From Phoronis australis (Eukaryota; Animalia; Phoronida), in contig NMRA01000114.1 of assembly GCA_002633005.1 (NCBI GenBank), positions 2,343 to 51,282 of the forward strand: 48,940 bases of DNA. Direction: 5' to 3'. The translations under genes were made by a program, and so were the position numbers. Of this stretch, positions 1 to 39,268 are shown in pieces. How positions within the stretch are numbered: the stretch's first letter is position 1; each line of letters begins with the position of its first letter. The notes under the pieces are model-generated. The model worked only from the letters and a program-made list of their open reading frames with translations. It did no database searches and was not told the origin of the DNA.

Positions 1-3000
1 ATTTCAGGTAATTTGTTGAGTCGAAACTATATTTTTATTCAAGAGTACAAGTTTTCCTATTGACGATGGCGATTCAGCGGCGACGCATCAGTCGGCAAGT
101 TTTCGCCCTGTGATGAGCACATTTTTTTGAAAAATTATCGTAATTTAACAACGGAAGTTCATAGCAATGCATCACAATTTTGTAGAAAGACTGTCATACA
201 TGTAGGCTAAAATTCGTCACAAAGCGTAAATTTTATGAATCCTAGCTTCCGATTTTACCCGTTTTGGAAACCGGCTTTCAACTGCCGTAGGCTACAATAA
301 GAATCCCCTCCCCGTGAAATGATTTTTTCTAAGCGTTTATTAGAGCCAATACAGTATACAGCTTTCCACCAAGGCTAGATGATACTACGACACTATTCTT
401 TGCTGCATTAGTAACTGGTCTTGGCTAATATTATCATTTTATGGCCTGGTCATCCATTCAGCCAAAAGTAGTTCCAGAGGTGGCTTATCAGCAAGCTGAC
501 TCACAATAGAAGCCTGATAAGAGTGAAGGTGGATAAATGCGGTGTTCCTACAGTTTCTTGTTTTAGTGGATGTGTTCACGATATGGATATTTGAAAAAAA
601 AATTCCACGACTGTTGACAATTGCATTCCTGTCGGTATTTTCATTAGAGGCTAACCAAGAAAGCAACAGCATTTTTCCAAACAAGTTTCACTGAATTGTT
701 AAAGAGGCCAGGAACGTGGTAAGCAGATTAAATTGCAATATTGAAAGTGGTTCTCTCCCACTGAAGCACAATTCAACCTGCTGACCTGGTAGTTTTAGGG
801 TTTGTTCGTAAGGATTTTTTTTTAATTTCTGTTGGTATCAAAGCATTATCTTTTATTTCGAATTCCAAAAAACGATATGTCAACTGCTAGCCACTTCGTC
901 GATTTTTCTCCCACAAGAAAACCACGAACTCTCCTTATTTGGTATAACAATACACAGACATGGCACATTTGCCTTACTTGGAACATGTGACCTTTGACCT
1001 CAAGCGACTTCAAGCAACTGATCGTGAACGCATGCGTGCATTTCTCATAACAGGGAGGAAGATTAGAAACTGTGGTCAATCTCACAGTTTTACTTCGCGC
1101 GTATTTCAAAAATCGTGATTTCCATCCTTGTTTTAAGTCTTTCATGTATTTATGCCTGCTGTCAATCAATAGGCAATGCCTCGAAATTATAATCTAACTC
1201 AAAGTCTTATAGACGAATTGCATTGTAATGAGGGTCGATATTAGGCTAAAGACCGATCGACGAAGTGTGGGGCGGGGATGACCTGGTACAACTATTGTTC
1301 CCTAATACTGAACACAAATGGCAAGCGTCATTTAGTTATTTCGGAGGACTGCGAACTGAATACTGTGATAGGCCTGTTATGCACACATCAAGGTGACAAG
1401 ACGACTTACGTTACTTGTATCTAAGTCGAGCACTTCACATGTGATTTCGTGTACACAATGCATTAACTTTCAATAGTATCAGCTGCCATTGTTTTCTAAC
1501 TGATATACTAATTTCCCAATTGTTCTTCAACTTTTTATATTTTCAGTTTTACTTTTTCACGTTTTGTCTTTTTTGGATTTGATTTCTTCTTACATGAAGA
1601 TGATAAATTATGAGAACTTGAAACAAAAATTGTGTACCAGCTGGTCTCCCAAAACAATGAATGTTGATGGTGAATTCCCACGCACTCGAATGTCATTCAG
1701 TCATATCACCAGCGGTAATTTCCAGTAAAAAGTACCATCGTAAATAGTATTTTTTCTAAAATTTTGGGAACAAGGTAACGGAAAGTGAAAGCACCCGCCC
1801 GTCAATTGATGAGGGTAATTCGTGGCTTATCTTCATGTCGTTCTATAATTTGTCGTTGTAATTACAACAAAATCTGGAACTTGAGAATTTTAAACATATT
1901 ACTTACAAATACTTTCAAGCTTTAACGTTGCAATATTGTTGTCAATAGTTGACGCTTTTTTACTCGAACATGGTTTACGACCTGTGTTTCAGCCGGACAC
2001 CAGATTATTTTTGCGCTTGTTTCCTGGCTGATACTTACTAAGCCAGAGTTTGCCAATTAGAACCTACTGAAATTCAATTTAAAGCAATTTGGTTTGTGAT
2101 ACATCAAAATAATTCATGAACTTTGATCCCGGTTCCAAAGTTTCCAAAGCCTCGTGCCCTTGCATTCCCTAACAATAATCGCGGAAAACCGTGCCCCCAT
2201 GAGAAGAGTCGAAGTTGTAAGACAGCCTGTTTTTCTCGAATGGACGCGTTGTTTAAAAATTTAAAACTTTTATGAAAACTCAAAAATCGTGCCCACTCTA
2301 ACTCCGTACAGTACAAAACCCATAAAATTGCACAAAACAAGAATTTAACAACTAGAATAACTTTTCCGCTTCATTTTTTCAATAGAAAATTACGTAAACG
2401 TGTTTCAAGAATATTATAGAATCTCAACGACTTGAAATTCCTTTAAAGCATACAAAAATTAAAGTTTCAACAATAATCAGCAGAATGCGTTTTTCTGCCG
2501 TTGCACTGAAAATGTCCTTTTAAACACCAAATCATTATCAGTTAAAGGCAGGAAAACGCATTGTTTTGTGTCACAACTTACAAAATTTTGTTTTTCGAGG
2601 ACTTTCATGAAAAGAAAGAAACTATTTTAAAATGAATTGTAGTTCCGCTTGTTTCATATAGCAGCTTACACCAGGGTTTATTTTTGTGATACACCAACTC
2701 AGGCCAGTACATTTTCAAATTCTCAAAATTCAACTTGCAGAGAAATATTGTATCAACCTACCTTCGGCGTTTGAGAGTCTCGCGAGGAGACACGCGATGA
2801 AGCACCAGTGTGGGAGATTCATCACGATAGTGATCGCCTCAAATGTCTTTCCAAAACCACTGAGAAATTTGCGATTCCTTCGTTATTTATAACAAGACGT
2901 GTGAAAAGAGCCGTTCCCGTTCAGGAAAATTATAAAAAAATGTCGTGCAAGTGTTTTTTTCGCCCACGTGTGATGACGTCAATGCGTAAATGGGTACATG

Positions 3001-18787: not shown

Positions 18788-21224
18788 GTGCCCGGCAAAA
18801 ACTTAATTGTCAAAGCACAATTGTTCCAAATAACAGAGTACAAGAATAACAGTGTGTCTCCGAGTAATTAGAACTAAATAATTTTGATATATTCAAGCCA
18901 TCTTTTAACAAGCTCCAGCGGATATGCGTCTTTACCTAGACGGGCTTATAAAACAATGACAGCTTCACCCATTTGCTAAAGAACTAGAAATGATAATTTC
19001 CTTACACAAAATATGTTGCAATATGTCAGACAAAGGAGTCATCGTCGCGCCTATATAACTACATGTTTTTACTGTGATATCGTGAAAATAAAGCATGCGT
19101 AATCAATAAGCATTTTTGTAAAACAGTCCTAAGCTCGACTCAATTATAGGTCAACATTACAGAATGCTCGCGCATGTATGACTTGTCGCAAATCAGCAGT
19201 AAGTAACTCCCGCAACTGTTTAACAACAAATGGTAAACGATATGTCCGTTAAGAGTAAAAGACAAAAGATAAAGTAACTGCCGCATCTTTCGAGTTGTTA
19301 CTAATGTCAGTAACGTCCTGCCACCGTCTCATATTCAAACCTTTTCATGTTGGACAATTAAAACGGTAGAGATACCTACAGTGATTGATATTGTATTTAC
19401 AGTGTAGTGATCATGTCTTAAACTGAACTCATCAGCACGGTACTAATAAACTAGACATAGTTCGCCAGAATTCTGCCAGCCTCTGTCGTACTTTGCCAGA
19501 ATTATTGGGAAGTTTACTCCAGTAAAACACTGTATACATAAAACTTTTGTCAGAGTTTACATTTTGTACGACGATATTTCCCCTAAGGCTAGTTGTTTAT
19601 TTATGAAGGGACTTGCGATTTCGACAACACGTGCTGAGACTTTGTCGAGAATCAGCCAGAATTGACACGGATTTTAGTCGAAAAGGAAATGATGCTTACT
19701 TGTGTGCTCTCAATTTATCGAAATTTCCCAGTTTATTTTGAAAACTTTTGTATGTGATGTCGTATGATAACTTTTTTCAAGCTTCATGTGTACAAATTTT
19801 TATAAGATAATTCGACTCGGTTCGCAGGCGTACAACAATCAACAATTGTTTTGCATGAAATTCTATGGTATAAGTTGTTGGAATTACCCACAGCATCACT
19901 GATTAAAACAAGGGCTGAAATCATATATTTACCACCAACTATATTGCATTAAGATTGTATAAAGTACTCAAGATGCCAGAGACAAAGTTTGAAAATATTT
20001 TTAATGTTTGCATGGGACAGTTCAACACTTTATTTTCTTGTGTTTTTATTTCCATACAAGGTCATCAGGATAGGGTTTGAATGTTTGACTATAAAGAGAC
20101 GGGTGCAAATTTTATTTAAGCAATGTTGCCGCTCAATGCACGTCTTAAATCTTTTCATAGCATATCGGAAAATAATTTTCTTTCCCAAACACCACATCCA
20201 AGACATCTATGAGTAAAACAGAGACAACAAGTCAACAATTTCTACAATATTGACCTACAAACATTTGGCTGATTCATTTCAAAGTATGGCGAAAATTCAG
20301 TTCGATTTGATGGCCAAAAGCAAGGTGTTCCTTAGTCAAGTAGAGTTTCGAGACCAATTTGCCAGTGGCAATAAGCCCGTTTCGTGTTATTCATATTTAG
20401 GCCGTACGTAGGGAGGAAATGTCCTCTTGTAGAGCAACTGAAACGCACTTTCGAGACGTTATACCACGGTGATTATGCGCATGATATGAAATGTCATTTC
20501 ACCTCCTATAAATGCTAGAGTAAGAACTCGTGAGCTTGAGCTGCGTTACACGTGCATCGTGAGATAGTCTGGGCTTAGAAGATCTAAAGCTCATACACGT
20601 TGTCTTGTAAGTTGTTTTGTGCCGTTTAATCAAAGCCAAAGGTCACAAGTCCGGTCGTTGCACGTTGGTGCAAACCCGACCCTACGATTGTACAAGAGTG
20701 AGACGTTGGAGCTGATGTTAAGTTACTTCGCCACCGTCTTCACATGCCAACTTATTGAAGTGCGAGCGCAGTAAAACAGAAGTTACGACTATTGATGAAT
20801 GCGACCCCTGATTTAACAGATGAGCGTCGCATCCCAGATACATTATCCCTTCATAAAAATGCCGATGTCATAAATAATATTCATTCAGTAGTTTTCAAAA
20901 TTAAGAAGACAACGTCGATTTTGACCCTCGGCCCATAATTCTGCATCATAATTATCATTTTTTCGACAAGAATCCGTCTAATTTTATCTAAATCGTCACA
21001 AAATTTTGACAGGTGGTGCTCCATCCACCTTGTGGAGTCGAAATAGGACAAATTACTGAGCAAGGCCATTGCATAAATAAAAAATGGCTAGGCGCAAACC
21101 GTCACATTAAACTCCGAGAAAAAAATTAACACAAAGCTTTTTGTTGGCACAAAATTCAGCCTAAATTGGCAAATGATTCCGGAACGAAGTGTATCCGCGT
21201 TTGGCAGAGTTGAAGTCTGATGAG

Positions 21225-21230
21225 TTTATT
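21225..21230 (-). promoter_or_regulatory. Candidate polyadenylation signal AATAAA of the TLDc-ZP gene
   Basis: TTTATT on the + strand, ~260 nt downstream of the TGA at 21490. Confidence 0.4.
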
Positions 21231-21489
21231 TTGAAAACTCGTGAAATTGATAGTGAACTCTATGCATTTCTTATTAGCTTCACATCAATGACAAGCTGAG
21301 ACGGAATTGATATTGTGAGTTGAACATTTCAAAGTAAACATAGTTCCGCCACGATGCACGTGACAACTAGCGCATGCTGGTTGACTTATTTTTAAAAATA
21401 TTAACTTAGCGAGAGCTTGTGATATTTGACTTGGCTTAGAAAATGCCTGCGGTAGCTAAATTAGTAGCAGCACTTCATTGCATCGATCT

Positions 21490-21674
21490 TCAGTCTTTGT
21501 ATTCTCGGTAAGTGACATTACGTTTGGCAAAAAAGCCCGCCAAGCAAATGACCAGCAACAAAAGGAAAGCAAGAACTGACACCACAGCATAGAACACAGT
21601 GATGTTAACATATCCTCTACAGACGTCGGTTTTGAAGTCCTCCTTGTATTGGTCTTTGTTTTCGGGCAATCCGT
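21490..21674 (-). CDS. Last exon: stalk, transmembrane helix, short cytoplasmic tail, stop
   Basis: ttcttgcag|AC GGA..: (D)GLPENKDQYKEDFKTDVCRGYVNITVFYAVVSVLAFLLLLVICLAGFFAKRNVTYREYKD*. A ~25-aa hydrophobic run is followed by KR. Confidence 0.88.
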
Positions 21675-24600
21675 CTGCAAGAAAAGAACTTACAGTGACA
21701 TTAGGCCCAAACCATGCGTTTACACAGCTTGGTGTAAGTAAAGCGGCTTTAAATTGAACTTTTGACTTTGATAATTTATCACTATAAAATGGGTTTTAGT
21801 TTGCTCCTTATACTGATTAGAAAATATTCGCCGAAGGGATGAAAGCTCGTTGCTTTTTGAGACTGCGCTCGGGGTGTCAGAAATAACGAAACGTCTATTC
21901 TGTGTAAACCCTAAATCACGTCGAATCCGAATACGGAACAAATGGAGACTAACGCAAAGTGATTTAATGTCATGCAGGACTAATTCGACAAGTATGCACA
22001 TTTAACCAAATACGTGTATCTACTTAACTGTAGCTACATACAACGTATCCGATCAAACTTTACGTGCAACGTCGAAACTTTTCCAAGGAAAGTATTTTAG
22101 GTCCCTTTTTAATAGCCTTTCATGCAAAGGGGAACATTTTAAAAATATTTTCGATCACCGGCTTAGAGAACCAAAGACAAAGAATAGCATTTTAATTCTC
22201 GTATGATAAACCAAATGTGGACATTTTTCTTTGGTCTTACATAATCTTAATGAGGACACGTTATAAAATTTCATTTTACTATATGAATGTCCAAGACTGA
22301 ATCCCAAGAACATGGTTAGAGTTTCGAAGTTATCACTTCGTTTTCGTCGTTTACAATATTGAACTTTTCATTAAAATCCTAAACGCCTTTTTGGTAACCT
22401 CATATGCAAAACTGGAACATTTGGAAAACAATTCCTGATTTTGTTTTGAGAACATGAAAGCAAGTTCATTTTATGAAAGTTTCATATGAGTCTGATCAGC
22501 TATTCTGAAATACGGTGTTATGTAACATTTGGAAAAATACTACAGAACTAAAAGTACATGTATGTCTAAATTAATTTACCTTCGTTGGAGACTTGTAACT
22601 CCATCTCTAATACCTCTCTGACATATTCACCGTCTGCAGACCTTCGTTTACGTCTAACTGTGCTACACGTGTTTCCGTTCGTCTGAAACAGCGGCGCTTA
22701 AAATTTACCAAATGCTTAATCACATAAATTACAAGTAAGCTCTAGTGAGTCATCTAGATTTCTCCATGTTTAAGTTCGGTAATATGGTTTTAGGAATAAA
22801 TATTACCTGATTTTTGGTTTCTCGCGAAAACTCTACAGTGACTTCATAAATGGCGGAGGTTTGGCCATAAAACCTGAACGTTGTCATGTCAACGCACATG
22901 GCTTTGCTCGAGGGATCGGTTGTGGGGAAACTGGGACCCACTTGAGTAATGGTGTTGGATTTGCATCTGAAAAGTTAGAACAATGAATAGTGACTGGTGC
23001 ATCGACCAAATACCCGAAATCTATAAACCAAAGGCATGGCAAAACTAAAGTGCTCTGCTTATATACTGGATCAATTAAAGGTTTATTAAAAATTTCAGTG
23101 GTTAAGTTAAGTCTTCCAAACTGGGTAAATCAAAAATATCTTCAAACTACAAGTGTTTTACAAAATTATCAACACGATTTGTTTTCTTGTGATAGTTCTG
23201 CAGTTATTACTTTGGTTAAACTTACCCTTCTTTAATGATGTAAAACTTCTTACCAGAAGCATCTATGGTTACAACGTCTACTACTATAGCGCCCTTGTAT
23301 GCTGAAATAAAATGGTTTGCAGGCCAGTGAATTGTGGTCTTGTGGCTATATGGCTTGCCATGCAAATAAACAAGTTGCTCGCAGGACATAAGGTAGAAAC
23401 GCAACAGTGACGAAGAGAACCAAATTAGGGTGTGATGTGAAGGTCAAATTGTTAGTTGCAAGGGAACGAAACGGCTCAAAAATATTTAACCTATCAAAAC
23501 AATGTTGTTGTGATGTCAGTCTTCGGTATTACTCGATTGTGATGACTAATAAAGAGACAACAATAATGACAAATTAAGAATACATTATGGGTGTTATAAA
23601 AATGTCATTGGGGCACATTAATAAGTGTTTTCGTGATTACACAACACCGTGTACTCGTTTTTCACAGCGCAGATACATACGATTATCGTCACTAAATTTG
23701 GGCTCCGCACACAATTGGAATCGTACTCCCAGTGTCGCTAGTGAGATCGGTTGTCCACCGATGTAGGCATGCAGAGAAGATGACGGCGGCGCAGCTCTTT
23801 CAGCGTTGAGATCTCTCCATTTGCTGTAACCAACAACTACGTAAATCAGAGCAATTACTTGGTACAATTTTCAGGTAACATGTTGTGTGATTGCGCCCTG
23901 ATTCTGGAATACCTTGTCTCCAGGTATCAGAAATAGCTAACAAAGTTTGCAAAATGGCGGCTACTAAAGTCATGGATCTGATACCTAGCAGCAGACAGTT
24001 TCTACGTGTACTTTCAATTGATTCAAAATGCATGCTATTTCCCATGCCAAATAACAAAATATAGAGGTAGCAAGCTATTGTTCACAATCGGAGAACCATA
24101 GAACGCGCGTGAGCGCGTCGTATAGATATTTCCTATGGGACACTACCATTGTTTTCCTTTGTTGGGTCGTTCTTGGATATCCCAATACATGTAGCACGGC
24201 TATCGTACCTTTGGCACCCAAATGCAGGTTTCCGATGAATGCTTACAACTATTTTTACGATAAGAAAGAAAAACAAAAAACACCGTGGATACGCCTATCT
24301 ACCGATATTTATTAAACGAGCTTGCAACCTAGTTTCCCGTGGGCTACGTTTCCAGTCCTCCTGAACGGGTATGGTTAAATTGTACCGGTACATTCATTAA
24401 ACAAGAACACGGGAACTTTCGACAGAATATTCAATTGCGTAAACTGCACCTAGGGGGCGCAGTCGTAGCGGCTAATACCCGGTTATGTACACATAGTAAT
24501 TCTATGACATAGTCTCTTTTGGTACTGAGAGGGGGCATGGTGCCAGATGAAGACAGCTTTCCTGATCTTTGTAGGAATGTACCTCGTCTAACTGTTCAAA

Positions 24601-27600
24601 ATGCCAGCAGATTAGCAGCCAGTAAATAAGGTCGTGTTCTTGGGCTGAAGACAACGAGCCGGTCCTCACAGAATTCTGCTCCTCAATACGGGCTTTTAAC
24701 TGATGACCAGACTCTCCAATACAGGAAGCCTCACAAGAAAAACTATCCAGCTGATAAACAACACTACACTTTGGTTCAGGGTTATGTATATCCTTGGGGA
24801 ACACTAGTGGATCCCGTAGAGTGTTGCCAAAGAGTAAACCTGCGCCCGTATTGTGTTTCATTCTGCAGTCTCTCTGAGATGCCTTGCGATTATGGTAACA
24901 CCGTCTTGCATTTACCTTTCTTGCACTCCTCAGTACTTCCGGTAGGTTTTCAGTCAGTTATCCGCCGCGGTGTCAGTTAGTATACTCAAACGGGGACGTT
25001 TTCTTATTTTAATAAGGCTTTGCTGGTTGAAATTGGGGTTTAACGCATTCGGCTGTTGATGTTGGCATATGTTTTAAATAAATGTAGGCCGCTCCACATC
25101 GCTGAATTAACTCGTTTCAACGGAACACGCGTTTGGATATGGGTGACATCTGTGAGTCACAATTTTACTTAGGCTGACCCTTGTACATGTATAGTAGACC
25201 CCTTACTGTTATAAAATTCTTCAGATTAGAAAACCAGATAATCGATCACTGCTTGTAACCATACCCGACATATAAATGACACGCCGTGGAAAATCGAAAG
25301 TTATCACGTCTCACAGGCCTCCAGCAATAACGTATTGTCACATCTTGTCAAGATCGGGACCCCAGTTTTAATCTTTTTACTCGAAATTATGTTTAGCATT
25401 TTCAACTCTACTTTTGTGCGAACTCAAAGTAATTGTCTTTTATTCTGTACTTGAGTACATAACGACTAAAGTGAATAATATTTTAGTCCCATATTGCAGT
25501 TGATAAACCCAACATTACTCGAGTTTGTAGCACGAATATCAGGGTCATCAAGTGCATACTTGGGCTGGTAACTCATAACTATAATTTATACCACAATATT
25601 AGCTTCGAATAGCAAATACAACCGTGCAATAACCCATTTAGTTATCTCACTAGTGAGATATCATTTTGGCGGGAAACCGAGGCCGATTTCGAACCCGGGC
25701 CTCAAGACTTTGGTGTCGCCGGCTTTACTACTACACCACTCAGCGGCTGACGTCATCGAAAGTGAAAATAGAATACTTAAATGAGCACGCGTAACAATCG
25801 CATGTTCAGCAAAGTGCATTGTACCGTCATTTATACGCTATGAAAATAAGACGCATAATTTCCATAAAAACTATATTTTAATTCAGTGAAATTTTTCTCT
25901 CGCGTTCTCTCATTTGTAAATCACCGATCTCCAATTTGAATGGGGGTATCATGTCGTCGAGATCCTTTGACCTGAGCATTGTACTCAGTTACTAGTGGTA
26001 AACTACTTTAGCACCCGATATTTTCCCGGTCCAAGCTTAGCTTGATAAAATGTATAGTAAGCTATAATAGATGCTAAACCGTAATTTATAGATTCACTTT
26101 ATTATTTCTATTTTGTTTAAATTTTCAATTGGTAAAAGCATTATTTGCCAAAAAACCTCGTCGACTTTTCTTAAAAGGTCACGACCTCCGACCTCGGGCC
26201 TCTGACATAGACAGTAGTTACGATAATTCTCCAAAATCCACTCGGGTTTTAGATAACGGGGGACAACGACTTCGCCATGTAATAATCTATATGTATCCGA
26301 GCACAGTTTGATTACCACCTACTTGAGTTCGCGCAAAAGTAGCAGAGAAATTTCCAAAAATAAATTCGAGATGATTTCCAGTACAAAAATTAAATTTCAG
26401 GCCCCTGAAATCGCTTCTAATCTGAATATTTTAACTATAAGATTAACTATGATTTATTTTTCAAAATGCGCATAAATTTTTCAACAATATGACAAGATGA
26501 ATGGTAGAAAGATAAAAGTTAGGAAGTGGCTATCGTAGATGTACTCAGTGTTGCTGAAAGACATCAATGCTTGAACACACAGCCTCTAGTTTACTAGCTT
26601 GTCACTTACGCAAACACTCCTAATTCCGCTGAAAGGCTGTGAGAAATCGGATCACCCTTGGTATTACAGGAAATGTTGACGTAGCCGTCTTCAGGACTGT
26701 CAAAGCCCAGTAGTAGCTGTAGTCTTACTTGGAAGCTCACCTCACCGTTTGTCTGTAAGGAAATAATGTATAGTATTGACGTAGCTTGCACCTCGCTATA
26801 CATGTATTTACGGCACCGCCAGTAACTTATGTGAACGGAACACCTGCCCGGGGGCTTCTCTTATCATCCGCAGCGCCTGCTCGTTATCCATATTTGTTGT
26901 AAAGGCTAGTCGTAATTTAGTCTTATAAGCTAATTTTCACAAGAAATCCTGCTCACTAGAGAGACACATCTAAAGGCCAAATGCCAAATACGCGGCGACA
27001 AACGAACTTGATTGAAAAACATAGGGACAATTAACTTTCCAGACATTTAAATAATAGATTACAAAAAAATTACAATATCTGCCATGGGTGTGCCAAGATA
27101 ATAGTTTCATTGTAAGAGAGCCCGGTATGCACTGAGCACAGTATTAGTTTCAACGTCATAATTAAAACCATCGTTGTATTTCCTTAAATGCTGTCCTTTA
27201 TTCTCATTATCCCACTTACATTTGCCGTAATGTTGCATTTGGGAAGATTAGTAATGTCAAGGACGAAACTTCCACTTCCGTCGTCAGATGTAGAACAGCT
27301 TGAGTCGCCAGGAAATCCCTTGATGAAGGCTTGCTGATACGTCATTCCGTTTGACATACGTGCAGGAAACGTCACTCGCACTCCGTTGTTCCCACAAATA
27401 TATTCACCTAAATAGGAGCGAATACGTTAGAGCAGGAAGGAGGCCCCATGTGAAAAATTAAACACAATCTCAGATCATACGCGCAACATATTTGTTCAAG
27501 ATCATTAAACAATTGAACAGAATACTTTAAACGCTATTCAAGTACATTCAAGTCACAAGACATGATCATTTCATGAAGGCAACCCAGACTATGTCGGCAC

Positions 27601-30600
27601 GTACCTTGAGTGTCGTTTCGTACGCCAGGGCTGCCTGTGGATGCAACTGAAACTTATCGAAAACACATTACAAAAGTTTCCAAAATGGTCGTCGAATAAA
27701 TCTGGATCCCGACCATTGGGAGCTAGCGATGGTTTGCCATTATATGAATCCTAAAGCTTGTTTTTCAAGTCGCAAATGGTTATAGGAAAACAATCCTGCG
27801 TTTATACCCTCACCGGTCAAGATTGGGCAACTAGACCCGTTTGGGTACCGCGAAATCTGCCGCAGTAACCAAGGACACAATTCACTTGTAACCAATTACA
27901 TCGCACCTACAAGTCACAGGCTTCTGATGTTATAGTTTCCTAGATAATCAGACCCACCATAAATACACTGGGGAGACAAAAATAATTTTAAATGTTCCTT
28001 TTAAAGTTTTTAAACGGCATTGAATAGTTCGTGAAAAGTTTTATATTTGAATTTTGGAAGTTTGAAAATCGGAGACGAAATGTGGCTATGTTTTCATACA
28101 ATGCCTCTCATTATTCGGCTGTTTGTGCAACATTCTTTTCAAACCAGCACCCTGAGAAGCTCAATTGTTAGGTAAGCCAAATGCCATCCTACAATTCTTG
28201 GCATGCATGCATCTCATCTTCGTTACTTGCTTTCACTGGGATGCAATGGGACAACATCAACCGAAAAACACGAACCGGAAATGTCAACAATCGTGTAAAT
28301 AGATCCAAGTCATGTCCTTACTGTTGTATCTTGCCATTTTCCGAATTCAGCCCAGATATGTAAAGAGTCCAAGGTTTCAAAAAGGACACGAGATACGTAA
28401 ATATTTCAACTAACTGTGAAAGATCGGGTTTACTTTGCTGTCCCTGTACGCGTACATCGAATAATTAAAACGGTAATCGAGAAACTGGAATGCCATATCA
28501 GGATTAAATCTTTCTATGTGATGTTTCACCCCATGCGATTGGCGCCCGGTTAACAGGACAACAAATATGAGTGTGTAATAATTAAGGGTACCTGCACAAC
28601 TCTGCTTTTTGCATTGCCGTGTCATCACTGAGGCACCTGAACAGTTCTGGAACTCATTCACACTCAGAGAATTTTTACACGACCGTGTTCTTGATTGAAT
28701 TCCTCCTCCGCAACTTTTACTGCAGTAACCCCATTCCGTCCACGTGGACAAACTAGCACCTGCCGACAATAAAAAAAAACGTCAGACATTTTCATTTCCA
28801 GCCTGTTTCATTCTGTATGTAACGTGAAATCAAAGACGTTTTCAAATCAACATTGGAATAGGTGTGTGATGAAAATAACATAGTTGTAAATGGGGGCTCT
28901 TCACGACATGCACGCAGCATAGGCTTTCAGGTTTAATGATTTTGTGACCAGTAGAAATTCGTCGAGTGACACAACAGATAACCCTAACCCTAACATTAAC
29001 CATTGAATTTTATTGATGAACTTAAAACAATTCCTTGAGGGGGGGCAGACAAACGGGATTTAGGGGAGCAAGTGTTGCAGGTGCTCCACTAAAGAAGCAA
29101 CATAATGCTGACAAGATTACGTCACCTGCGTATGTAACAGAGTACACCTCGATGTCTGACCATTTGACACTTCTCCCACAACCCAATGATCCCCCGCTGT
29201 ATGTGTGATCTCTTTCAGAGCAGTAACCATTGGTGGCAAAGTACTTAGATGTTGCGGTGTAGTTGGAGGATCCGTTGAAGAACATCAGGTCATGGCCACC
29301 ACCAAACGTCGGTCCGTATTTCCAATAGTGATAAAGTGCATGCCTGCTGTTTGATGACGTCTGGTTAAATCGTTTACTGCTGCATTCCGATGCACATAAG
29401 CGAAACAAAAAAGCACTGCTGTCTTGTCCATAGCTTTCACCATCCCCCCAAGACTCAAATGCGTAACCCCCATAGACGGTGCCGTTCGTAGCTTCGCGAC
29501 CAATGGTGAGAGTGGGACCTTTATTGTTACATAGTTGGTGGAAAACTGAGCTCACCATACCATCACCGGTCGCACGGTAAAGCAATTTGAACGCACTATT
29601 CGGTAAGTACTGGCGGATTTGAGACACCTGCTTATCGGACAACAGTTTTGAACTCTCGATGGACTCTGAAATACAATGTAAACGTGAAAAGGATAGTCCA
29701 ATATATATGTATAAAAGTACGACAATGTGCATTTTATTAAACACAACAACGAGCATTATGTGACTAGGAAAAAGCAGAGGAAATAAATGTTGGATTTTGA
29801 CGAACTGAGACAAGTATGAAACTAAAGACTTGCATGAATTTTGAGATTGCCTTGAGACCGTTGCAATAACGTGAATTCACGTTCGTCGCATTTTGTAGGA
29901 TCGTTATCTTGGAGTAAACACATTTGACTAGAGCCATAAAAGTGCACAATCTATTGAACTGTCGTGATTTCATCGCAAAATCACCGATTCCTTATAAAGG
30001 CTTCAGGGAGGGGGCACAACCATTTGGACTTCTTCAATCTACACCCCTTCCATCGCCACCACCTCCGCCGACCACTCCCTGCACCGTCCACCCTAGGTGG
30101 GGGCAATCCCGAGGGGTGCAGCCATCAACAGTTGAGTAACCATGAAGCAACAGAGTTTCACGGAGAGTAAGAATGGGCCTAGGACCAGTGCACTGACAGG
30201 TAGCTGGGAGATGCCTCAAGTAACTGTAGCTAAGATCTAACATTGTGGAAATACGAAACTCCCGTTGAACTTGAGGTAGTTGTTGGTCAGCTCAGCTGTG
30301 ATTCACTTGAGAAAGGCAGCTCAGTTCGTACCTATCCGTCTGCGCTCGCTATCAGTCAAGATTCGTTTCACTGTGATCCAGTTTCGGGAAAACTTTATTT
30401 TATTATGGTTATTCTTTGAAGGAGATATTTGAAAGGGTGAGGTCCCAGGGTCCCTGGTAAAATGCCTTTGGGGTTATTTCAAAATCTCTCGTTGAAACAC
30501 GACTGGTAGTCCAGTTTCTGGTGCCTGGGAAAAATTATACAGAGTAGGCCTCAAAAATGTACACACGTCAACGCCTGGAGTTGAGTTCCCGTGGATCTCG

Positions 30601-33600
30601 GAGATTCTTCGCGCGCGTACTGCATGCTTACATCATAGTTGTCGTGGGTTAGTCAGTCATGACGTTCTTTATCTGCGTAGTACATGTATGCACGGGAATC
30701 GGAGCAAGCAAACAATTCGGTTTTGAGGAACAAAAATTCGTTACACCACTCTACTGGAAACCAAAAAAAAAACAGTAAAGAAGTGCAAAGAAAACCTTTC
30801 CAATGCGTTAAATTTCATTAATTTAAGGATTTAAACTTCTTTTTGATCAACGGTTTGTGAATTTAAACCATTAATCTAAGTCGACAAGAAATTTATTGTC
30901 ACTTGAATTTCGAGAACATTTTGGTACAGTTTTTAGAGCTGTCCAACATTAATCAATGTCCTTGAGTCTAATTTCAGATTATACAAAATAGCTTAGTGTA
31001 CTTTGCTATTTGGGAATCTGATGATAGATTGAATTTTCCCAGCCTGCAAATAAGTTCATTGAAGCATCGCCATTTCTTAAAAGAATCGCTTCTAATTGTC
31101 AAAAAATCATCTAAAATCAGTCGATTTTCGTAGATACATAAACAGGAAAATCAGAAACCAATGATGTTGTTTATCAAAACAGCATTTTTTCAGGCAGGCT
31201 CACAGACTTTTGATCGGTAAACCTGGGAGATGAGCCATTCGTATTAAGGTGTATCTTTTCTCATTTCAGAGGTACCTATAACTCTTCACAAGCTAAACTT
31301 GAATTCGGCTGACAACAAAAAGGTGAAATCTTTGTTTATGATTGCGAGAGTTCTTTGAGTACCACTTTCGGCTTGTACACGGTCATCACAAATAGTAGCC
31401 TAGACAGCAGTGTTTTACACAAGTGGGAATTCCTTACAAACAACTCATAATGACCATCCACAAAACGGATACTATTCTTGTGTTACTATGGGAAACAGTA
31501 ACATTATTCTGTAACAAACCATCTTAAGTATTCCTTTTGTGTAATTCACAAATGGTGGTCTTCACGTTTTTCAAAATTCCACTCGTTCGATATGGCTGTC
31601 AATCCTATTGTATTTTTTCACATTTTAGGTTGTTTTGATACTGCTGTGATGTGCACGAATATTTTTTATGAATTTGTAATATCAACTTCCTTCGTGAATA
31701 CTTGGTAGTATTGGATTGACGTGTATAGAGGGACAAAGAGACATTTCTCTCGAACTGCACCACCGAGAGAGGGTACCGTCTGAAAAGGGACACCTTAAGA
31801 CGAAAGGCATAACATCATTAAGCTTGGAAAATGAAAATTCATTCTGACGTCGTGCAGTCACAAGACGGCACAGGAAAATAGAGGTAATCGATTCCAACAT
31901 TGGGCCCTCTCTTTGTGAGCGGCCCCTTAAGCATTTGTCAATAAAAACATAAAAGGGGGCCACTTGAATGTCATCAATGGACTCCTTCCAGGGCGGGGCT
32001 CCTAAATATTAAAATCCATGTATTTACGAAATCCGCAGCAATTGATGTTATCTGTCGGGTCACCTTTTTTTCTCAAGTGACGTACAATTCCGAGAAAAAA
32101 AATAAAGCAACTGGTGTCTCCATTATCCTTTGCCGGAGAGGGTCTTCCCAAAAATACGGTTTTGCATTCGCAAATAAATACACTCCGCAAAAGCGTCGAT
32201 TAACAAATTTTCTCGTGCACGTTCTCAAGTGCGTTTAACGACCTGTGCTGCAAAAATGGAGACTCTAACGACAATGTCCTGGCCACGGTCATCAAAAGGT
32301 AAACCATGCACTGATATAGAGCTGTTAAATGATCTCTTCAATTTTCTCTCTTACGGTATTTAGCAGCCTTTCTTTTCTGGCTGTCCCCGTCCCCATTCTT
32401 GTGCCGTTTGCCACGCTCTAATCCTGACGCCTGAAAACGCTTCTCCGCTTCCTGCGGCCCTGGGTTTACAGATAAAATTACACAAAACCAAAGTGGCGAC
32501 CAGCTAACCAGATGTTTCGTTGCTGGACGACGTGACGGAAATGGTTAAGTCGTCGATGTCTGGTATTGACTAAGAAGTCCAAACGATAGGTAATTGCATG
32601 GATGTACATTGTATGTGAGGCGAACCACATTCCAGTAGAAATCTCACTTGAATAATCGTTTGGGCAAAATTGAACTCTGGACTGTTGGTCGCCACAAGCT
32701 AGCACTTCATTCGAGCTTACTCTGCTCCATGCACGTTAGTTGCCGGCTTTGCAACCCTCTCGTTTTTAGAAAAGTATGGCATGTCCATAATTATGGGGAT
32801 TCGAGCATCCCCAGAAATCCGCTTGCGTTCTAAATCCCCATTGAACAAAATTCAGCAACTTTTCAATCATAACCTATTGTATAAACGTTTTGGGGTTAAC
32901 TATTATCAAACTACTGAGTTGCAAGATATCGTTTCTGAACCCTAACATTACTGGCAAAGTTAGTTATAAGGTATAACGTGGAATATGAAAGTCGCGTTTC
33001 TCAACAGAGACGGAATCAAAGCAACGCAAATAAACAGAACTTTTGTTTTACGAAAATGCTCGGAGCAACTGCTGACGTGTTATCTGAGAAAAATAGCACA
33101 AATGCGTTCACATAAGCTCGAATTCTTGAAGCTCCATTGTCACCGGCTATGTCTTACCCTCCACGCCATACACCTCAACATCCGTCCATTTGACACTTCT
33201 CCCACAACCCAATGACCCCCCGTCGTACGTGTCATCGCTCCTGGAGCAGTTACCATTGGTAGCAAAGTACTTAGATGCTGTGTTGTAGGCATACGGTCCA
33301 TTGAAGAACATCAAGTCGTTACCACGACCAAATGTGGGTCCGTAGAGTGCATGATCGTAAACAGCAAACTGGTGTTTATCTGATATCTGGTTAAATCTCC
33401 TACTGGTACACTCCGGGCCACAGAGACGTAGAAGGAAGGCGTTGCTGTCGGAAGCATACCCATTGGATTGCCTCCAAGATCTAGATGCATATCCGACATA
33501 GACCGTGCCTTTGGTAGCCTCGCGTCCTACGGTGAGTGTGGGACCTTGCCTGTCACAAATGAAATGAAAGGCGGTGCTTGACATTCCGTCGATTGTGGCG

Positions 33601-35996
33601 CGGTAGAGTAACTTCATCTTCCTGCCTGGTATGTATTGCCTTAGCTGTGTCAGTTGTTGGGAAGATAAAAGGTTCGAGTCTTCTATGTACTCTGAAATCG
33701 TTAAAGCGATGAAAAAATCATTACCATAACAACCATGATCTCATAGGCTGGGAATCAATGTTACAAGTACACTGTAATTGCCATCCTTTATAGGATGCAG
33801 TTTGGCCTAGTGGAGTAATTATCCTCCTTCTTTACTCAAGACTTAAGTTCAGGTTCCACCGTAGCACCCTGCTAGACCCTTGAGACAGGTATCTACCTCT
33901 TATCATCTCGGTTTTAACTACATATGACTGAAACATAAAAATGGTTCCAGGTGATTTGTCAAATGAGCCCACCTGATCAGCTTCTGATTATTTGTATAAA
34001 TAGCGATCCTTAGATGTACAAACTAATCTCTGTCACTGAACGGAAGTGAATTTTCTCTTATCTTGGAACACGGTATTTGCTTGGTACTTTACTCGGGCAA
34101 AACAAAAACAACCAGTATAATGATTTCAAAATTCAAAATCTACACTACACCGCAAGCCCGTATTATCATGAGTGGAAGTACGATCACGCCGCTCACAGTT
34201 AAACAATTAAATCACGAAGAAAACAAGTTCCCGGTAAGGGCATGAGAAACTTACAGGCAATGGACTTAAAAGACACAGGTGAAACTGCAATCGTGAATCG
34301 TGAATGAAAACAATTAATATGGCTTCTTGGTGTGTCGGTTTATAGTTTCGGACAAGATGTGGCTTAAATTGTAATACTTAGTTGTTTCCATGCTATCATA
34401 GCCATCTCCTTAAATATATAATTTAAATTACGTTTATTTGGAAAATGATATTTGTTTTTCACTTTTTGGTCAGAAGAGGATGGACTTCATGCACGATTTA
34501 AGCCACAAATGCCAAAACCCGGCATGTTTTGAACACAATTTGAGGTTTAATTTTTCGCCTGAAGCAGTGGGCAGTTACCGTCACTATGTGAAATTTACCT
34601 TCAATGCTGTATGTTTCCATGTCGACCCACGTAACGTTTGATCCACAGCCAACTGAACCCCCATCATACGTGTTGTCAGTCGCAGAGCAATAGCCATTTG
34701 TAGCAAAGTATTTCGATAATGTGTTGTAGTTGTATGATCCAGAAAAAAACATCAGGTCGTGGCCGCCACCAAACGTGGCTCCATAGTTTGAATGATCGTA
34801 GACAGCATACGCACTTCGAGTTGACATAAGATTAAACTTTGCACTGGTGCACCCTGACCCACACAAGCGGAACAGGAAAGCTCTAGTGTCAACAGTTAAG
34901 CCATTGCTATTTTTGTTCCAAGACCTGGACGTATACCCGCCGAAGACTGTGCCGGTGGTCGCGTCCCTAGCAATAGTTATCGTGGCGCCAAGATTGTCGG
35001 CACTCCAATGAAAAGCTGGTCCCGACATGCCGTCTCGCGTTGCACGGTACACCAACTTCAAACTTTTGCCTGGTACACGCATGTACTTTCGCAACTGTGT
35101 GAGATGTCTAAGTGTCAAGAGTTTAGAGTCTTCTATAAATTCTGAAAAGAGATAATGGTTGACATTAATTTGGCATAACTTATACAACTACGACTTTGTT
35201 GAGAATGTGGTCACCATCTCACAAAAGAAACGTCCAACAGCTAGAACGATGAAAGATGGAGAACAAACACAATAACAATTAACACACATTCAAACACAAC
35301 GTCAGGTCCTCCTTAAAAGGTAGACAAAATTTTTACGTGAGCCATACCACAAAACGAAATCAATACAAACATGACACGACTAATGACAACAACATCAAAC
35401 ATAGAAAATGTGTAATGTGCCCTAAAGGCTAACGAAATTTTAATTTCAGTCTACAGTCTTACCTACGAGGCTGTACACTTCTATATCCACCCATTTGGCA
35501 AGAAATCCACAACCAAGTGACCCTCCGATGTAGCTCCGGCCATAGCAGTACCCACCGGAGGAAAACTGCTTAAGTGTACTGTTGTAATAACTATAGCCGG
35601 AGAAGAAAAACAAGTCAAAGCCGCTACCAAATGCTGGACCATAGCTTGCGCTATCAAGAACGGCGTAATTTTGGAACGATGATGACTGCGATTGTTTTGC
35701 ATTGGTGCATTCAGAGCCACATAGGCGGAATATGAAGGCGTTTTTATCGGCCATAAAGTCGTTAAGTCCTCTCCAAACTGTAGCTCTGTATCCGCCGTAC
35801 ACGGTGCCTTTTGTAGCCTCGCGTCCTATGGTGATGGTAGACCCTTGCTTGTCACAAAGGCTGTGAAACTTGGAGGCCGCCATGCCATCACGTGTGGCTC
35901 GGTAAAGCAATCGATATGTCTTCTCTGGAACACTCATGTACTGTCGTAGTTGGGATAAATGTTGAGTTGTCAACAACAGCGAGTCCTCGATGAACT
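21490..35996 (-). CDS. Multi-exon gene: 4x TLDc + TSP1 + ZP domain + furin site + TM (type I membrane/ZP matrix protein), 5' incomplete
   Basis: Exons 35463-35996, 34599-35141, 33158-33691, 29126-29665, 28592-28759, 27605-27646, 27220-27407, 26610-26752, 23681-23823, 23226-23301, 22807-22966, 22580-22682, 21490-21674. All have AG/GT boundaries and compatible phases and give one open frame of ~1119 aa ending in TGA. Confidence 0.88.
22580..22682 (-). CDS. Exon with last ZP Cys, consensus furin cleavage site and EHP-like strand
   Basis: tttcag|TNGNTCSTVRRKRRSADGEYVREVLEMELQVSNE G|gtaaat; phase 0-1. Confidence 0.88.
22807..22966 (-). CDS. ZP-C exon
   Basis: ttttcag|(G)CKSNTITQVGPSFPTTDPSSKAMCVDMTTFRFYGQTSAIYEVTVEFSRETKNQ|gtaata; ZP-typical FRF motif; phase 2-0. 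Confidence 0.85.
23226..23301 (-). CDS. ZP-C exon
   Basis: tttcag|(P)YKGAIVVDVVTIDASGKKFYIIKE GG|gtaagt; completes the ZP-C YIIKEGC motif; phase 1-2. Confidence 0.85.
23681..23823 (-). CDS. ZP interdomain linker / start of ZP-C exon
   Basis: ggttacag|(A)KWRDLNAERAAPPSSSLHAYIGGQPISLATLGVRFQLCAEPKFSDDN C|gtatgt; phase 2-1. Confidence 0.8.
24500..24960 (-). mobile_element. Penelope-like element fragment (GIY-YIG endonuclease), intronic, degenerate
   Basis: NTLRDPLVFPKD..KCSVVYQLDSFSCEASCIGESGHQLKARIEEQNSVRTGSLSSAQEH matches the PLE consensus VVY.I.C..C...YIGET.R.L..R..EH. Upstream LP*SQGISERL. Confidence 0.8.
25670..25750 (-). repeat. tRNA-like/SINE head with Pol III A and B boxes (not a functional tRNA call)
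   Basis: Minus strand TGGTGTAGTAGTAAAG...CCCGGGTTCGAAATCGG. I could not fold a convincing cloverleaf. Confidence 0.4.
26610..26752 (-). CDS. ZP-N exon 2
   Basis: ccttacag|TNGEVSFQVRLQLLLGFDSPEDGYVNISCNTKGDPISHSLSAELGVF GC|gtaagt; contains ZP-N Cys4; phase 0-2. Confidence 0.85.
27220..27407 (-). CDS. ZP-N exon 1
   Basis: tatttag|(G)EYICGNNGVRVTFPARMSNGMTYQQAFIKGFPGDSSCSTSDDGSGSFVLDITNLPKCNITAN|gtaagt; ZP-N Cys1-3; phase 1-0. Confidence 0.85.
27605..27646 (-). CDS. 42-nt linker mini-exon
   Basis: gtttcag|(V)ASTGSPGVRNDTQ G|gtacgt; phase 1-1 and open. Skippable without frameshift, so inclusion is not proven. Confidence 0.6.
28592..28759 (-). CDS. Thrombospondin type-1 repeat exon
   Basis: STWTEWGYCSKSCGGGIQSRTRSC..NCSG..RQCKKQSC; WxxW, CSxSCG and RxR motifs, six Cys; phase 1-1. 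Confidence 0.93.
29126..29665 (-). CDS. TLDc domain exon 4
   Basis: KLLYRATGDG..FHQLCNNKGPTLTI..VYGGY..W..D..AFLF..YGPTFGGGHDL..IEVY; tttcag| and G|gtgacg; 540 nt; phase 1-1. Confidence 0.92.
33158..33691 (-). CDS. TLDc domain exon 3
   Basis: KLLYRATIDG..FHFICDRQGPTLTV..YGPTFGRGNDL..VEVY; tttcag| and G|gtaaga; 534 nt; phase 1-1. Confidence 0.92.
33793..34030 (+). mobile_element. Degenerate tRNA-derived SINE-like sequence (intronic)
   Basis: TGGCCTAGTGG A-box, AGTTCAGGTTCC B-box-like motif, then a CCCTTGAGACAGGTATCTACC core-like segment. Confidence 0.4.
34599..35141 (-). CDS. TLDc domain exon 2
   Basis: KLVYRATRDG..FHWSADNLGATITI..VFGGYTSRSW..YGATFGGGHDL..METY; ttttcag| and G|gtaaat; 543 nt; phase 1-1. 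Confidence 0.92.
35463..35996 (-). CDS. TLDc domain exon 1
   Basis: RLLYRATRDG..FHSLCDKQGSTITI..VYGGY..YGPAFGSGFDL..IEVY; ttctag| and G|gtaaga; 534 nt; phase 1-1. Confidence 0.92.
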
Positions 35997-36447
35997 CTAG
36001 AAGACGTGTAGAACAAGAAACTGTCAGTGTTTTAGACGTTCACAGAGACGTGGACACTATATATTTTACACCATTTTATTTGTAAACAAATAATTATCTA
36101 CAACGACTGGCTAAATTCTCTTACTACACATCAGCCTTCAGCTGCCGCGTTGGATTCAAATAAAATTATATTGGTAAATTGTGCTGTAAAGCTTACCAGC
36201 TAATACCGTTCTGATATGAATGTGACCCTTATCGATGCCATATAAGCAAACCAGTTTTACCGTATATTTTATTTGCTAATATAATAAGACATTTTCCGTT
36301 ATAACAGTGACGCGATTTCAAAACTTAATTTTGTAATTTTATATGTCTAGAAACTAGTGCACGAACTGCAAGGACTATAAAGTACGTTGTCCTTGTTAAC
36401 TAAGTGACTAATGTGACCAAAGGGCTGGGTGTTCAAGTAACACTGGA

Positions 36448-36552
36448 CTCTCCCTATCTCTCATTCCCTCCCCCTCCTCCCTTCCTCTCTTCCCCTCCTT
36501 CTCTCCCCTTCCCTCTCTCCCTAACTCCCTCCCCACTCTCTCTATCCTTCCT
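36448..36552. repeat. Polypyrimidine (CT-rich) low-complexity tract
   Basis: About 105 nt almost entirely C/T on the + strand. Confidence 0.9.
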
Positions 36553-38698: not shown

Positions 38699-39268
38699 NN
38701 NNNNNNNNNNNNNNNNNNNNNNNNNNNNNNNNNNNNNNNNNNNNNNNNNNNNNNNNNNNNNNNNNNNNNNNNNNNNNNNNNNNNNNNNNNNNNNNNNNNN
38801 NNNNNNNNNNNNNNNNNNNNNNNNNNNNNNNNNNNNNNNNNNNNNNNNNNNNNNNNNNNNNNNNNNNNNNNNNNNNNNNNNNNNNNNNNNNNNNNNNNNN
38901 NNNNNNNNNNNNNNNNNNNNNNNNNNNNNNNNNNNNNNNNNNNNNNNNNNNNNNNNNNNNNNNNNNNNNNNNNNNNNNNNNNNNNNNNNNNNNNNNNNNN
39001 NNNNNNNNNNNNNNNNNNNNNNNNNNNNNNNNNNNNNNNNNNNNNNNNNNNNNNNNNNNNNNNNNNNNNNNNNNNNNNNNNNNNNNNNNNNNNNNNNNNN
39101 NNNNNNNNNNNNNNNNNNNNNNNNNNNNNNNNNNNNNNNNNNNNNNNNNNNNNNNNNNNNNNNNNNNNNNNNNNNNNNNNNNNNNNNNNNNNNNNNNNNN
39201 NNNNNNNNNNNNNNNNNNNNNNNNNNNNNNNNNNNNNNNNNNNNNNNNNNNNNNNNNNNNNNNNNNNN
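38699..39268. other. Assembly gap (570 N)
   Basis: Run of N. Confidence 1.

Follow-up and report, generated by a model that had tools for sequence, protein, structure and literature searches.

Four TLDc domains on the predicted outer side of a TSP1 and ZP-like membrane protein in Phoronis australis

The case for what TLDc does biochemically has been built almost entirely on cytosolic V-ATPase regulators (PMC13570293, PMC8608904; both in part). OXR1, NCOA7, TBC1D24, mEAK7, TLDC2, and yeast Oxr1/Rtc5 act on the cytosolic V1 sector (PMC8608904, PMC13570293; in part). Among invertebrate ZP proteins, variable N-terminal domains on the filaments are usual (PMC11673550, PMC9290575; in part), and most molluscan EGF-ZP proteins are suggested to remain on the cell surface even though they have a furin site (PMC9290575, in part). 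In uromodulin, an FXF motif, a cleavage site, and a hydrophobic patch follow one another in that order (PMC7737619, in part). Here, we describe a gene that joins TLDc domains to a ZP-like region, in a 48,940-nucleotide stretch of Phoronis australis DNA (contig NMRA01000114.1; hereafter, the window). The first-pass annotation called this combination undescribed. Our search of open-access papers, which took in few supplements, likewise returned no TLDc-ZP protein, and “TLD” occurs nowhere in the main texts of PMC9290575, PMC11673550, and PMC13361971 or in one PMC9290575 supplement.

As first proposed, the gene model comprises 13 phase-compatible exons on the minus strand (21490..35996), each bounded by AG acceptor and GT donor sites where it is spliced (Table 1). 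Joined, these exons give a frame of 1119 amino acids with a single terminal stop; the proposed junctions (29126/28759 and 28592/27646/27407) have correct coordinates. The encoded order is four TLDc domains, TSP1, a ZP-like region, RRKRR (residues 1034-1038), one membrane segment, and an 11-residue tail (KRNVTYREYKD). The model opens mid-codon at 35996, and this span contains no signal peptide. Membrane-grade hydrophobicity is confined to one 19-residue segment (1085-1103; Kyte-Doolittle mean, 3.05; runner-up, 1.22). Thus, no barrier lies between the TLDc domains and the ZP-like part, in agreement with the earlier placement of both on the same side and of a furin-type site ahead of the membrane anchor. 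There are 13 N-glycosylation sequons ahead of the membrane segment. The head exons are all symmetric phase 1-1 cassettes.

Table 1. Positions of the exons and associated features in the window.
Feature	Position	Strand	Properties
TLDc exon 1	35463..35996	-	Phase 1-1, 534 nt; PF07534 E 7e-17
TLDc exon 2	34599..35141	-	Phase 1-1, 543 nt; PF07534 E 9e-19
TLDc exon 3	33158..33691	-	Phase 1-1, 534 nt; PF07534 E 4e-18
TLDc exon 4	29126..29665	-	Phase 1-1, 540 nt; PF07534 E 8e-23
TSP1 exon	28592..28759	-	Phase 1-1, 168 nt; six Cys, WxxW; skippable; TSP_1 E 3.6e-12
Linker exon	27605..27646	-	Phase 1-1, 42 nt; also entry point for a different upstream exon
ZP-N, first half	27220..27407	-	Cys 792, 825, 845
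ZP-N, second half, and start of interdomain linker	26610..26752	-	Cys 879; from sequence pattern
Linker and first strands of ZP-C-like domain	23681..23823	-	Cys 936; from RNA joints
ZP-C-like middle exon	23226..23301	-	Ends KEG before Cys 972; from RNA joints
ZP-C-like exon	22807..22966	-	Cys 972, Cys 995, FRF 1001-1003; motifs by eye
Exon with Cys 1030, RRKRR, and candidate external hydrophobic patch VLEMELQV	22580..22682	-	From sequence
Last coding exon	21490..21674	-	Stalk with lone Cys 1077, membrane segment 1085-1103, tail, stop
3' untranslated region	20803..21489	-	X1 contig and stranded X2 and X3 reads; barely in X4
Signal-peptide-like first exon MNLPHWCFIACLLARLSNAE	2762..2822	-	Phase-1 GT donor; 18.7 kb downstream of the stop

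All four TLDc exons match PF07534 (62-82 bits; cut-off, 24.5; profile positions 3-169 of 170). The TSP1 exon matches TSP_1 (PF00090; 46.7 bits against 21.6) and has a WxxW motif and six cysteines (730, 734, 745, 757, 767, and 772). With every copy above its Pfam cut-off, the original naming of these domains is borne out. An AlphaFold model of copy 4, the one copy modeled, reaches pLDDT 95; a single-sequence prediction (pLDDT 31) was set aside. The best fold match of copy 4 is the zebrafish OXR2 TLDc domain (4acj; Z 20.1, rmsd 2.0, 159 aligned), and the highest non-TLDc match has Z 4.2. A lectin identity was dropped, as fibrinogen-like and lectin folds reach only Z 4 or under. An inter-helix glycine, matched by eye to the position of NCOA7 G815, is kept in all four copies and in 90% or more of 64 aligned family rows. 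All four copies also carry two added cysteine pairs, a CxxxC and a second pair, which may form two new disulfides per domain. The added pairs are complete in none of 429 homologous domain hits, a control that is weaker for the second pair because only 139 of these hits extend to the last Cys column.

In the ZP-like region, four cysteines (792, 825, 845, and 879) have the spacing of ZP-N, in which Cys pair 1-4 and 2-3. In the ESM Atlas, the first ZP-N exon has a top match of 0.93, a score attained by shuffled proteins in 4-10 of 100 cases; ZP-N and CUT_N account for 14% and 11% of the members of its cluster, and 10 of 10 family hits fall in one clan. This exon has no Pfam or PDB sequence match, and the second-half exon has no Pfam match. 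Together, these sequence features point with modest confidence to ZP-N. The ZP-C exons, searched singly (24-53 residues), have no Atlas, Pfam, or PDB match, which may reflect the shortness of single exons (24-62 residues with the ZP-N exon, also missed by Pfam). The ZP-C-like part has only four cysteines (936, 972, 995, and 1030). It lacks the canonical Cys5-Cys7 and CysA-CysB pairs, and there is no Cys in the segments read by eye as strands C and F. Cys5-Cys7 is also lost in nematode CUTL-28 and fly NompA, and CysA-CysB in CUTL-24b and ZP3 (PMC7456536, in part). The missing Cys5-Cys7 therefore speaks against the canonical eight-Cys form only. By eye, Cys 972 (KEGC) and Cys 1030 are at the expected Cys6 and Cys8 positions. 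The FXF motif is present as FRF (1001-1003), and the R-X-K/R-R consensus cleavage site as RRKRR, before the anchor. Past the cleavage site, VLEMELQV (1048-1055) alternates like a strand and is a candidate external hydrophobic patch. The order and spacing of GC, FXF, C-RRKRR, patch, and membrane segment are consistent with ZP-C, FXF, cleavage site, and patch following one another as in uromodulin, and from these motifs, we infer a noncanonical ZP-C. Of the first-pass annotation's ZP-N/ZP-C module, ZP-N thus has modest support from its Cys spacing and Atlas match, and ZP-C is recast as noncanonical, identified from motifs and with no database match.

Our preferred explanation, which we hold with a little more belief than doubt, is a one-pass membrane protein with its TLDc heads outside, a likely cut at RRKRR, and a ZP filament or coat that displays the heads. 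A putative signal peptide, seen in a relative's contig, would direct the protein outward. An extracellular position is predicted for the four TLDc domains, TSP1, and the likely ZP module. Cleavage at the furin-type site near the membrane would then let the protein polymerize as a ZP filament or apical coat, which would present TLDc as multivalent binding heads. A role in mucosal defense, egg coat, cuticle, or shell matrix is a conjecture of the first-pass annotation.

The same gene and topology might instead yield a membrane-anchored, nonpolymerizing receptor or adhesion molecule in the style of betaglycan or endoglin, with the TLDc domains as ligand-binding ectodomains. We think this unlikely, although it has some points in its favor: a ZP-C without Cys5-Cys7 and CysA-CysB, and the receptor-like FN3-TLDc x3-TNFR-TM architecture of the choanoflagellate protein P0014. 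In addition, the lone stalk Cys 1077 could link a dimer, a role that we presume by analogy with endoglin. However, the strong RRKRR directly after the last ZP Cys, the FRF, and the candidate patch are parts of a polymerization switch, and the 11-residue tail leaves little room for signaling. It is also improbable, more so than a receptor, that the C-terminal region pairs a ZP-N-like domain with some other beta domain, in a TLDc-bearing surface glycoprotein without ZP behavior. The unmatched ZP-C exons and missing canonical cysteines would suit such a protein, but single exons are too short to search, the ordered motifs suit ZP-C, and comparable Cys losses are known in the CUTL-28, NompA, CUTL-24b, and ZP3 cases cited above.

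RNA data support one gene, rather than separate TLDc and TSP1-ZP genes. We used contigs presumed to be RNA (X1) and three read runs chosen by species label (X2-X4). These sequences are 90-99% alike to the window and thus come from a different individual, possibly of a sister species. RNA joints were seen for 11 of 12 introns. TLDc exons 1 and 2 are joined in X1, X3 (5 reads), and X4 (1); exons 3 and 4 in X1, X2 (1), and X3 (1); and exons 2 and 3 only by reciprocal loose ends of X1 contigs. The junctions singled out by the first-pass annotation for an RNA check were all found. TLDc4-TSP1 is crossed by 13 reads in three runs (X2, 2; X3, 9; X4, 2) and an X1 contig, and linker-ZP-N by 99 reads (X2, 3; X3, 15; X4, 81) and an X1 contig. 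TSP1-linker is thin, with one X1 contig and two X4 reads whose cut site is inexact; another X1 contig skips TSP1 and joins TLDc4 to the linker. Joints flank 26610..26752 on both sides, and those of 23681..23823, 23226..23301, 22807..22966, and 22580..22682 occur in X1-X4. Joint 22580-21674 is present in all four. The indels shown within exons add up to multiples of three. First mates of the stranded reads lie almost exclusively on the plus strand, the pattern expected of RNA from the minus strand. No single read or contig in X1-X4 covers the whole gene, and a paralog could supply some joints. A splice-site scan placed the 23823-23681 exon outside its top 40; its boundaries were set by RNA joints.

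One X1 contig splices a signal-peptide-like exon onto TLDc exon 1. The window exon at 2762..2822 matches 29 of 30 letters of that spliced sequence and probably opens a tandem sister gene that leaves the window at its left end, or else is a misplaced assembly piece. An ATG scan, motif search, blastn, and internal-exon scan of 36000-48940, which includes a 570-base N gap (38699-39268), did not find the signal exon of this gene copy. In X4, most ZP transcripts are without TLDc exons (depth 21-54 in ZP exon bins versus <1 in TLDc bins), and 117 reads continue from the linker exon into an exon that is unmatched in the window at up to three mismatches. This sister transcript has the ZP stem in common and a different 5' end, which tracks the other ZP haplotype (4, 9, and 91 reads in X2, X3, and X4). 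Across the same runs, TLDc4-TSP1 reads (2, 9, and 2) covary with the window-type ZP-N joint (2, 8, and 0) and with 3' UTR bin depth at the locus (4.6, 12.1, and 0.7). Given the skipping of TSP1 and the sister transcript's shared stem, the heads appear exchangeable. Largely separate transcription of the TLDc array and of the ZP-TM exons, with the joined form a minor read-through product or one from a paralog elsewhere, is very improbable: the X4 depths, the 117 foreign reads, and the signal exon missing upstream would fit, but TLDc4 contains no stop and is joined in frame to TSP1 or the linker, its joint to TSP1 covaries with features of this locus, and the foreign 5' end belongs with the other haplotype.

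The TLDc heads are closest to animal IFI44-like TLDc domains. The two group with 96/94 support in a 38-row tree (which omits P0017, P0054, P0199, P0264, five IFI44-like, two BTB, and six “other” proteins) and with 97 aLRT in a 64-row quick tree. A single clade of the window TLDc with all other secreted TLDc is rejected (p-AU 0.0017); a clade with secreted coral TLDc is not (p-AU 0.16). This grouping, the phase 1-1 cassettes, and the apparent exchangeability of the heads suggest that the heads were recruited separately, through exon shuffling of an intracellular IFI44-like TLDc. IFI44-like proteins of bivalves, gastropods, amphioxus, and lamprey (35-50% identity to the window TLDc) carry a P-loop-type domain after a single N-terminal TLDc and are without both Cys pairs; in the window gene, tblastn and the exon model place TSP1 and the ZP-like part after TLDc, with no P-loop-type domain. 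None of 266 retrieved TLDc proteins, IFI44-like included, resembles residues 718-1119. No close relative appeared among 8 matches of a longer protein search with TLDc4, the best 150 of 6741 representative-protein matches, or the best 120 of 395 matches to a four-copy profile, nor did the ZP-N exon match any of 74 candidates at E 10; these negatives argue only weakly for absence. Four loci emerged from a metagenome scan, none with the TSP1-ZP part.

TLDc proteins with signal-like N-termini also occur among database entries for coral, choanoflagellate, rotifer, and Naegleria. Oculina P0167 is PAN-EGF-TLDc x3, and Salpingoeca P0001 and Microstomoeca P0014 are FN3-TLDc; Didymodactylos P0041/P0158 and Naegleria P0240 are further uncharacterized examples. 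Like the window gene, these proteins have several TLDc among extracellular domains, but they are without ZP, TSP1, and both Cys pairs. No papers on them were found among the titles and abstract openings listed. The proposal that the window TLDc are extracellular gains from the RNA joints, the signal-like exon, and the new cysteines; this gene is not alone in having extracellular TLDc. A soluble intracellular OXR1/NCOA7-type regulator was rejected, judging from a sequence in which TLDc precede the sole membrane segment and a signal-like exon is spliced upstream. The cell's own V-ATPase is an unlikely ligand because the TLDc-binding V1 sector is cytosolic.

More speculatively, and with considerable doubt, TLDc might be a general binding module with a second life outside cells. 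An immune-associated IFI44-like TLDc would have been exon-shuffled to a ZP filament, given two disulfides, and multiplied. The result would be a tandem family of ZP stems with exchangeable heads, serving as a uromodulin-like decoy or a coat that reads microbes or gametes. If so, the ligand would reveal TLDc binding targets besides V-ATPase. The predicted outside position of TLDc with added Cys pairs points to a capacity of the fold for other ligands; as a compact domain, the window TLDc should be secretable for ligand fishing. TLDc would also be a new head type for ZP proteins, and its outward move would exemplify phase 1-1 exon shuffling of an intracellular domain. This is less surprising given how often ZP proteins acquire heads and that other unstudied, secreted-looking TLDc are already in databases.

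The window TLDc, modeled from copy 4, shares its fold with 4acj, 7uzk, 7une, 6r82, 7fde, and 9moy (Z 14-20, 14-24% identity). Unlike the OXR1/NCOA7 type, it occurs in four tandem copies, with added Cys pairs and on the predicted outer side. The ZP comparators of the window protein are nemertean NeZPL1-6 (EGF, CUB x8, VWD; PMC11673550), molluscan EGFZP (PMC9290575), and nematode cuticlins CUT/CUTL and fly NompA (PMC7456536), each source in part. The window gene shares with them a signal peptide (putative here), an N-terminal array, a four-Cys ZP-N, a furin-type site, one membrane segment, a short tail, and tandem gene copies (likely here). Unlike these comparators, the window array is TLDc x4 plus TSP1, and its ZP-C has four cysteines only. 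Membrane-proximal cleavage, FXF, a hydrophobic patch, and a filament-displayed N-terminal branch would be as in uromodulin (PMC7737619, in part). The window protein differs from uromodulin in having a membrane segment rather than a GPI anchor, a TLDc/TSP1 rather than an EGF/D8C branch, and fewer ZP-C disulfides.

The window DNA is animal-type, rich in introns and ~39% G+C. On its minus strand, 13 exons with AG/GT ends and compatible phases join from 35996 to 21490, as the first-pass annotation had proposed, into one frame of 1119 residues with a single, terminal stop. Exons 1 to 6 are symmetric phase 1-1 cassettes, and the frame is kept on removal of any one. The proposed order of four TLDc domains followed by TSP1 is borne out: each TLDc exon encodes a whole domain (62-82 bits; Pfam cut-off 24.5), and the repeat in exon 5 is recognised as TSP1 at 46.7 bits (cut-off 21.6). 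RRKRR (residues 1034-1038), the only membrane-type segment (1085-1103, mean hydropathy 3.05) and an 11-residue tail are also present; the runner-up segment reaches 1.22, leaving no hydrophobic segment between the TLDc array and the ZP part, as had been claimed. Thirteen sequons lie N-terminal of the membrane segment. We consider this architecture very probably real and extracellular.

Features of the window
Feature	Position	Strand	Observation
TLDc exons 1, 2, 3, 4	35463-35996, 34599-35141, 33158-33691, 29126-29665	-	
TSP1 exon	28592-28759	-	
Linker exon	27605-27646	-	
ZP-N exons	27220-27407, 26610-26752	-	
Differences right after RRKRR	22580-22682	-	three, read-supported, all amino-acid changing: G1042D, Y1044S, E1047Q
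Signal-peptide-like exon	2762-2822	-	MNLPHWCFIACLLARLSNAE; phase-1 GT donor
LINE-type reverse transcriptase fragments	14961-16682	+	broken; Pfam RVT_1 E 1.4e-05, under cut-off
Intronic repeat	25500-26540		heavy RNA coverage of both strands and numerous loose ends, the usual signature of dispersed elements
Repeated units	42109-42237, 43388-43632		41-53 bases, partly palindromic
Two 855-base copies	44761-45615, 45617-46466		head-to-tail, 97% identical, one N between; likely an assembly haplotype duplication
Integrase-core element	47590-48427	+	interrupted; Pfam rva_4, E 1.7e-14 and 4.8e-04

The product would enter the secretory pathway, where disulfides would form and glycosylation occur. Furin-type cleavage at RRKRR, then loss of the hydrophobic patch, would come before polymerisation of the ZP part, which would build an apical coat or a mucus filament with four TLDc heads per subunit. 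This whole chain is the most likely mechanism, favored somewhat above even. A protein that stays as an anchored receptor, against which the RRKRR site speaks, is rather unlikely.

In the annotated ZP-N half, residues 792-879 hold four Cys spaced as in ZP-N, and the Atlas (ESM Atlas) neighbours of the first ZP-N exon are ZP-N/CUT_N clusters (0.93, 206 shared features). Families occur on 11-31% of members (top five rows having one) and fall in one clan (10/10), which is modest backing. The ZP-C half was called by eye, in comparison with the cuticlin-type consensus, from its motifs: KEGC, FRF, a final Cys directly ahead of RRKRR, a strand of alternating hydrophobic residues and then the anchor, the element order described for uromodulin (PMC7737619). 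Searched as short single exons, ZP-C had no match in Atlas, Pfam or PDB; the ZP-N exon too had none in Pfam or PDB, so searches with exons this short carry little weight. Cys5-Cys7 and CysA-CysB are absent, a loss known from other ZP proteins (PMC7456536, in part), and Cys 936 and Cys 995 may form a new bond. The region is not a canonical eight-Cys ZP module; it is ZP-like, and ZP membership is probable. A non-ZP stem would fit the unmatched exons and missing bonds but not the Cys spacing and ordered motifs, and is improbable.

Four public RNA runs of one organism label (2 studies) were mapped to window 20800-36440: X1, contigs whose RNA nature is guessed, and X2-X4, stranded raw reads, 18-19% of them read. 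They are 90-99% like the window and thus come from other individuals or a close species. Joints are seen for 11 of 12 introns, each in an X1 contig and in reads (X2/X3/X4; among joints listed, with 22 further joint rows): TLDc1-2 (0/5/1), TLDc3-4 (1/1/0), TLDc4-TSP1 (2/9/2), TSP1-linker (0/0/2, cut inexact), linker-ZP-N (3/15/81) and the next six (2-102 per run). RNA crosses 29126/28759 (TLDc4-TSP1) and 27605/27407 (linker-ZP-N); 28592/27646 (TSP1-linker) has the two inexact reads and a contig. For TLDc2-3 there are only X1 contigs whose loose ends are reciprocal (19/20 letters matching). One X1 contig skips TSP1, and listed exonic indels sum to 3 or 6 bases per site. Because no single record covers the whole gene, the chain is built from pairwise joints; separate genes for the TLDc array and the ZP-TM part, against which the TLDc4-TSP1 joint speaks, are highly improbable.

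X4 depth is 21-54 in ZP bins and <1 in TLDc bins, with the 3' UTR nearly absent (X2/X3/X4, 4.6/12.1/0.7). At 27646, the linker exon is joined in 117 X4 reads to a sequence without a match in the window. A ZP-N joint with a base change has 4/9/91 reads, the window-type joint 2/8/0. From the foreign reads, different ZP haplotype and different 3' end, we infer a sister gene whose ZP stem is nearly the same and whose head and 3' end differ; an allele is less likely. The data point to its abundance in the X4 sample. Across X2-X4, a small basis of three runs, the window-type ZP-N joint, TLDc4-TSP1 joint and 3' UTR depth covary, which argues that the TLDc exons go with the window-locus stem. Between X1 contigs and the window, the 543-nt TLDc exon 2 shows 34 differing positions and 3 gaps, the ZP-N exons only 3/131 and 3/186; the heads may be evolving faster than the stem, or derive from a paralog.

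One X1 contig extends 221 letters upstream of TLDc1; of the last 30, 29 match window 2762-2793, within the signal-peptide-like exon. Lying downstream of the gene, this exon likely begins a tandem sister gene leaving the window at its left end; alternatively, the assembly is misordered. Scans of 36000-48940, where a 570-base gap lies, did not reveal the window gene's own first exon. Splicing of a signal-like exon to TLDc1 is thus shown for the family and not for the window copy.

The TLDc copies are 52-62% identical. Third codon positions have diverged further (35-50% identical) than the other two (62-81%), a pattern expected of old duplicates under selection. A 64-row alignment gave a model of copy 4 (AlphaFold pLDDT 95) that matches TLDc structures only (fold-match Z 14-20; next fold 4.2). 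All four carry CxxxC and a second Cys pair. Neither pair is complete in any of 429 TLDc matches from 266 fetched proteins; single pair columns hold Cys in 16/405, 4/326, 36/215 and 9/139 covered matches. The pairs are predicted to form disulfides, which would adapt these domains to the outside of the cell.

Protein searches found no close relative, and tandem TLDc arrays are common among the matches. By a rough proxy for a signal, Met at the start together with a stretch of strong hydrophobicity, 31/266 qualify, including Salpingoeca and Microstomoeca FN3-TLDc, Didymodactylos and Naegleria; a coral Oculina PAN-EGF-TLDc x3 protein is just below threshold. None of the 266 resembles residues 718-1119 (TSP1-ZP part) or combines TLDc, TSP1 and ZP. 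Five (P0167, Oculina; P0014, Microstomoeca; P0017; P0054; P0069) mix TLDc with PAN/EGF, FN3/TNFR, EGF/LamG, Ig/MACPF or STIG1 repeats and represent a wider set of TLDc proteins that are likely extracellular.

In an unrooted tree (38 rows, 185 columns), the window copies group as a single clade (100/99) adjoining animal IFI44-like TLDc (96/94). Constraining them with all 17 secreted-type domains, which do not themselves group together, is rejected (p-AU 0.0017); with coral copies alone it is not (p-AU 0.16). On this unrooted tree of 185 columns, it is likely that the window TLDc were recruited separately, from an IFI44-like ancestor.

The available part of PMC13570293 has 0 occurrences each of "extracellular" and "signal peptide". 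Like PMC8608904, it discusses TLDc function in terms of cytosolic V-ATPase regulators. TLD has 0 occurrences in the main texts of the ZP papers PMC9290575, PMC13361971 and PMC11673550 and in the one supplement of PMC9290575. The annotation's view that the combination is undescribed holds for the literature searched; subscription journals and unseen supplements may mention one. The wider idea of TLDc outside the cell recurs among database proteins, though apparently unpublished. The gene is real and transcribed: a variant, with an architecture not found described, of the ZP-type surface proteins.
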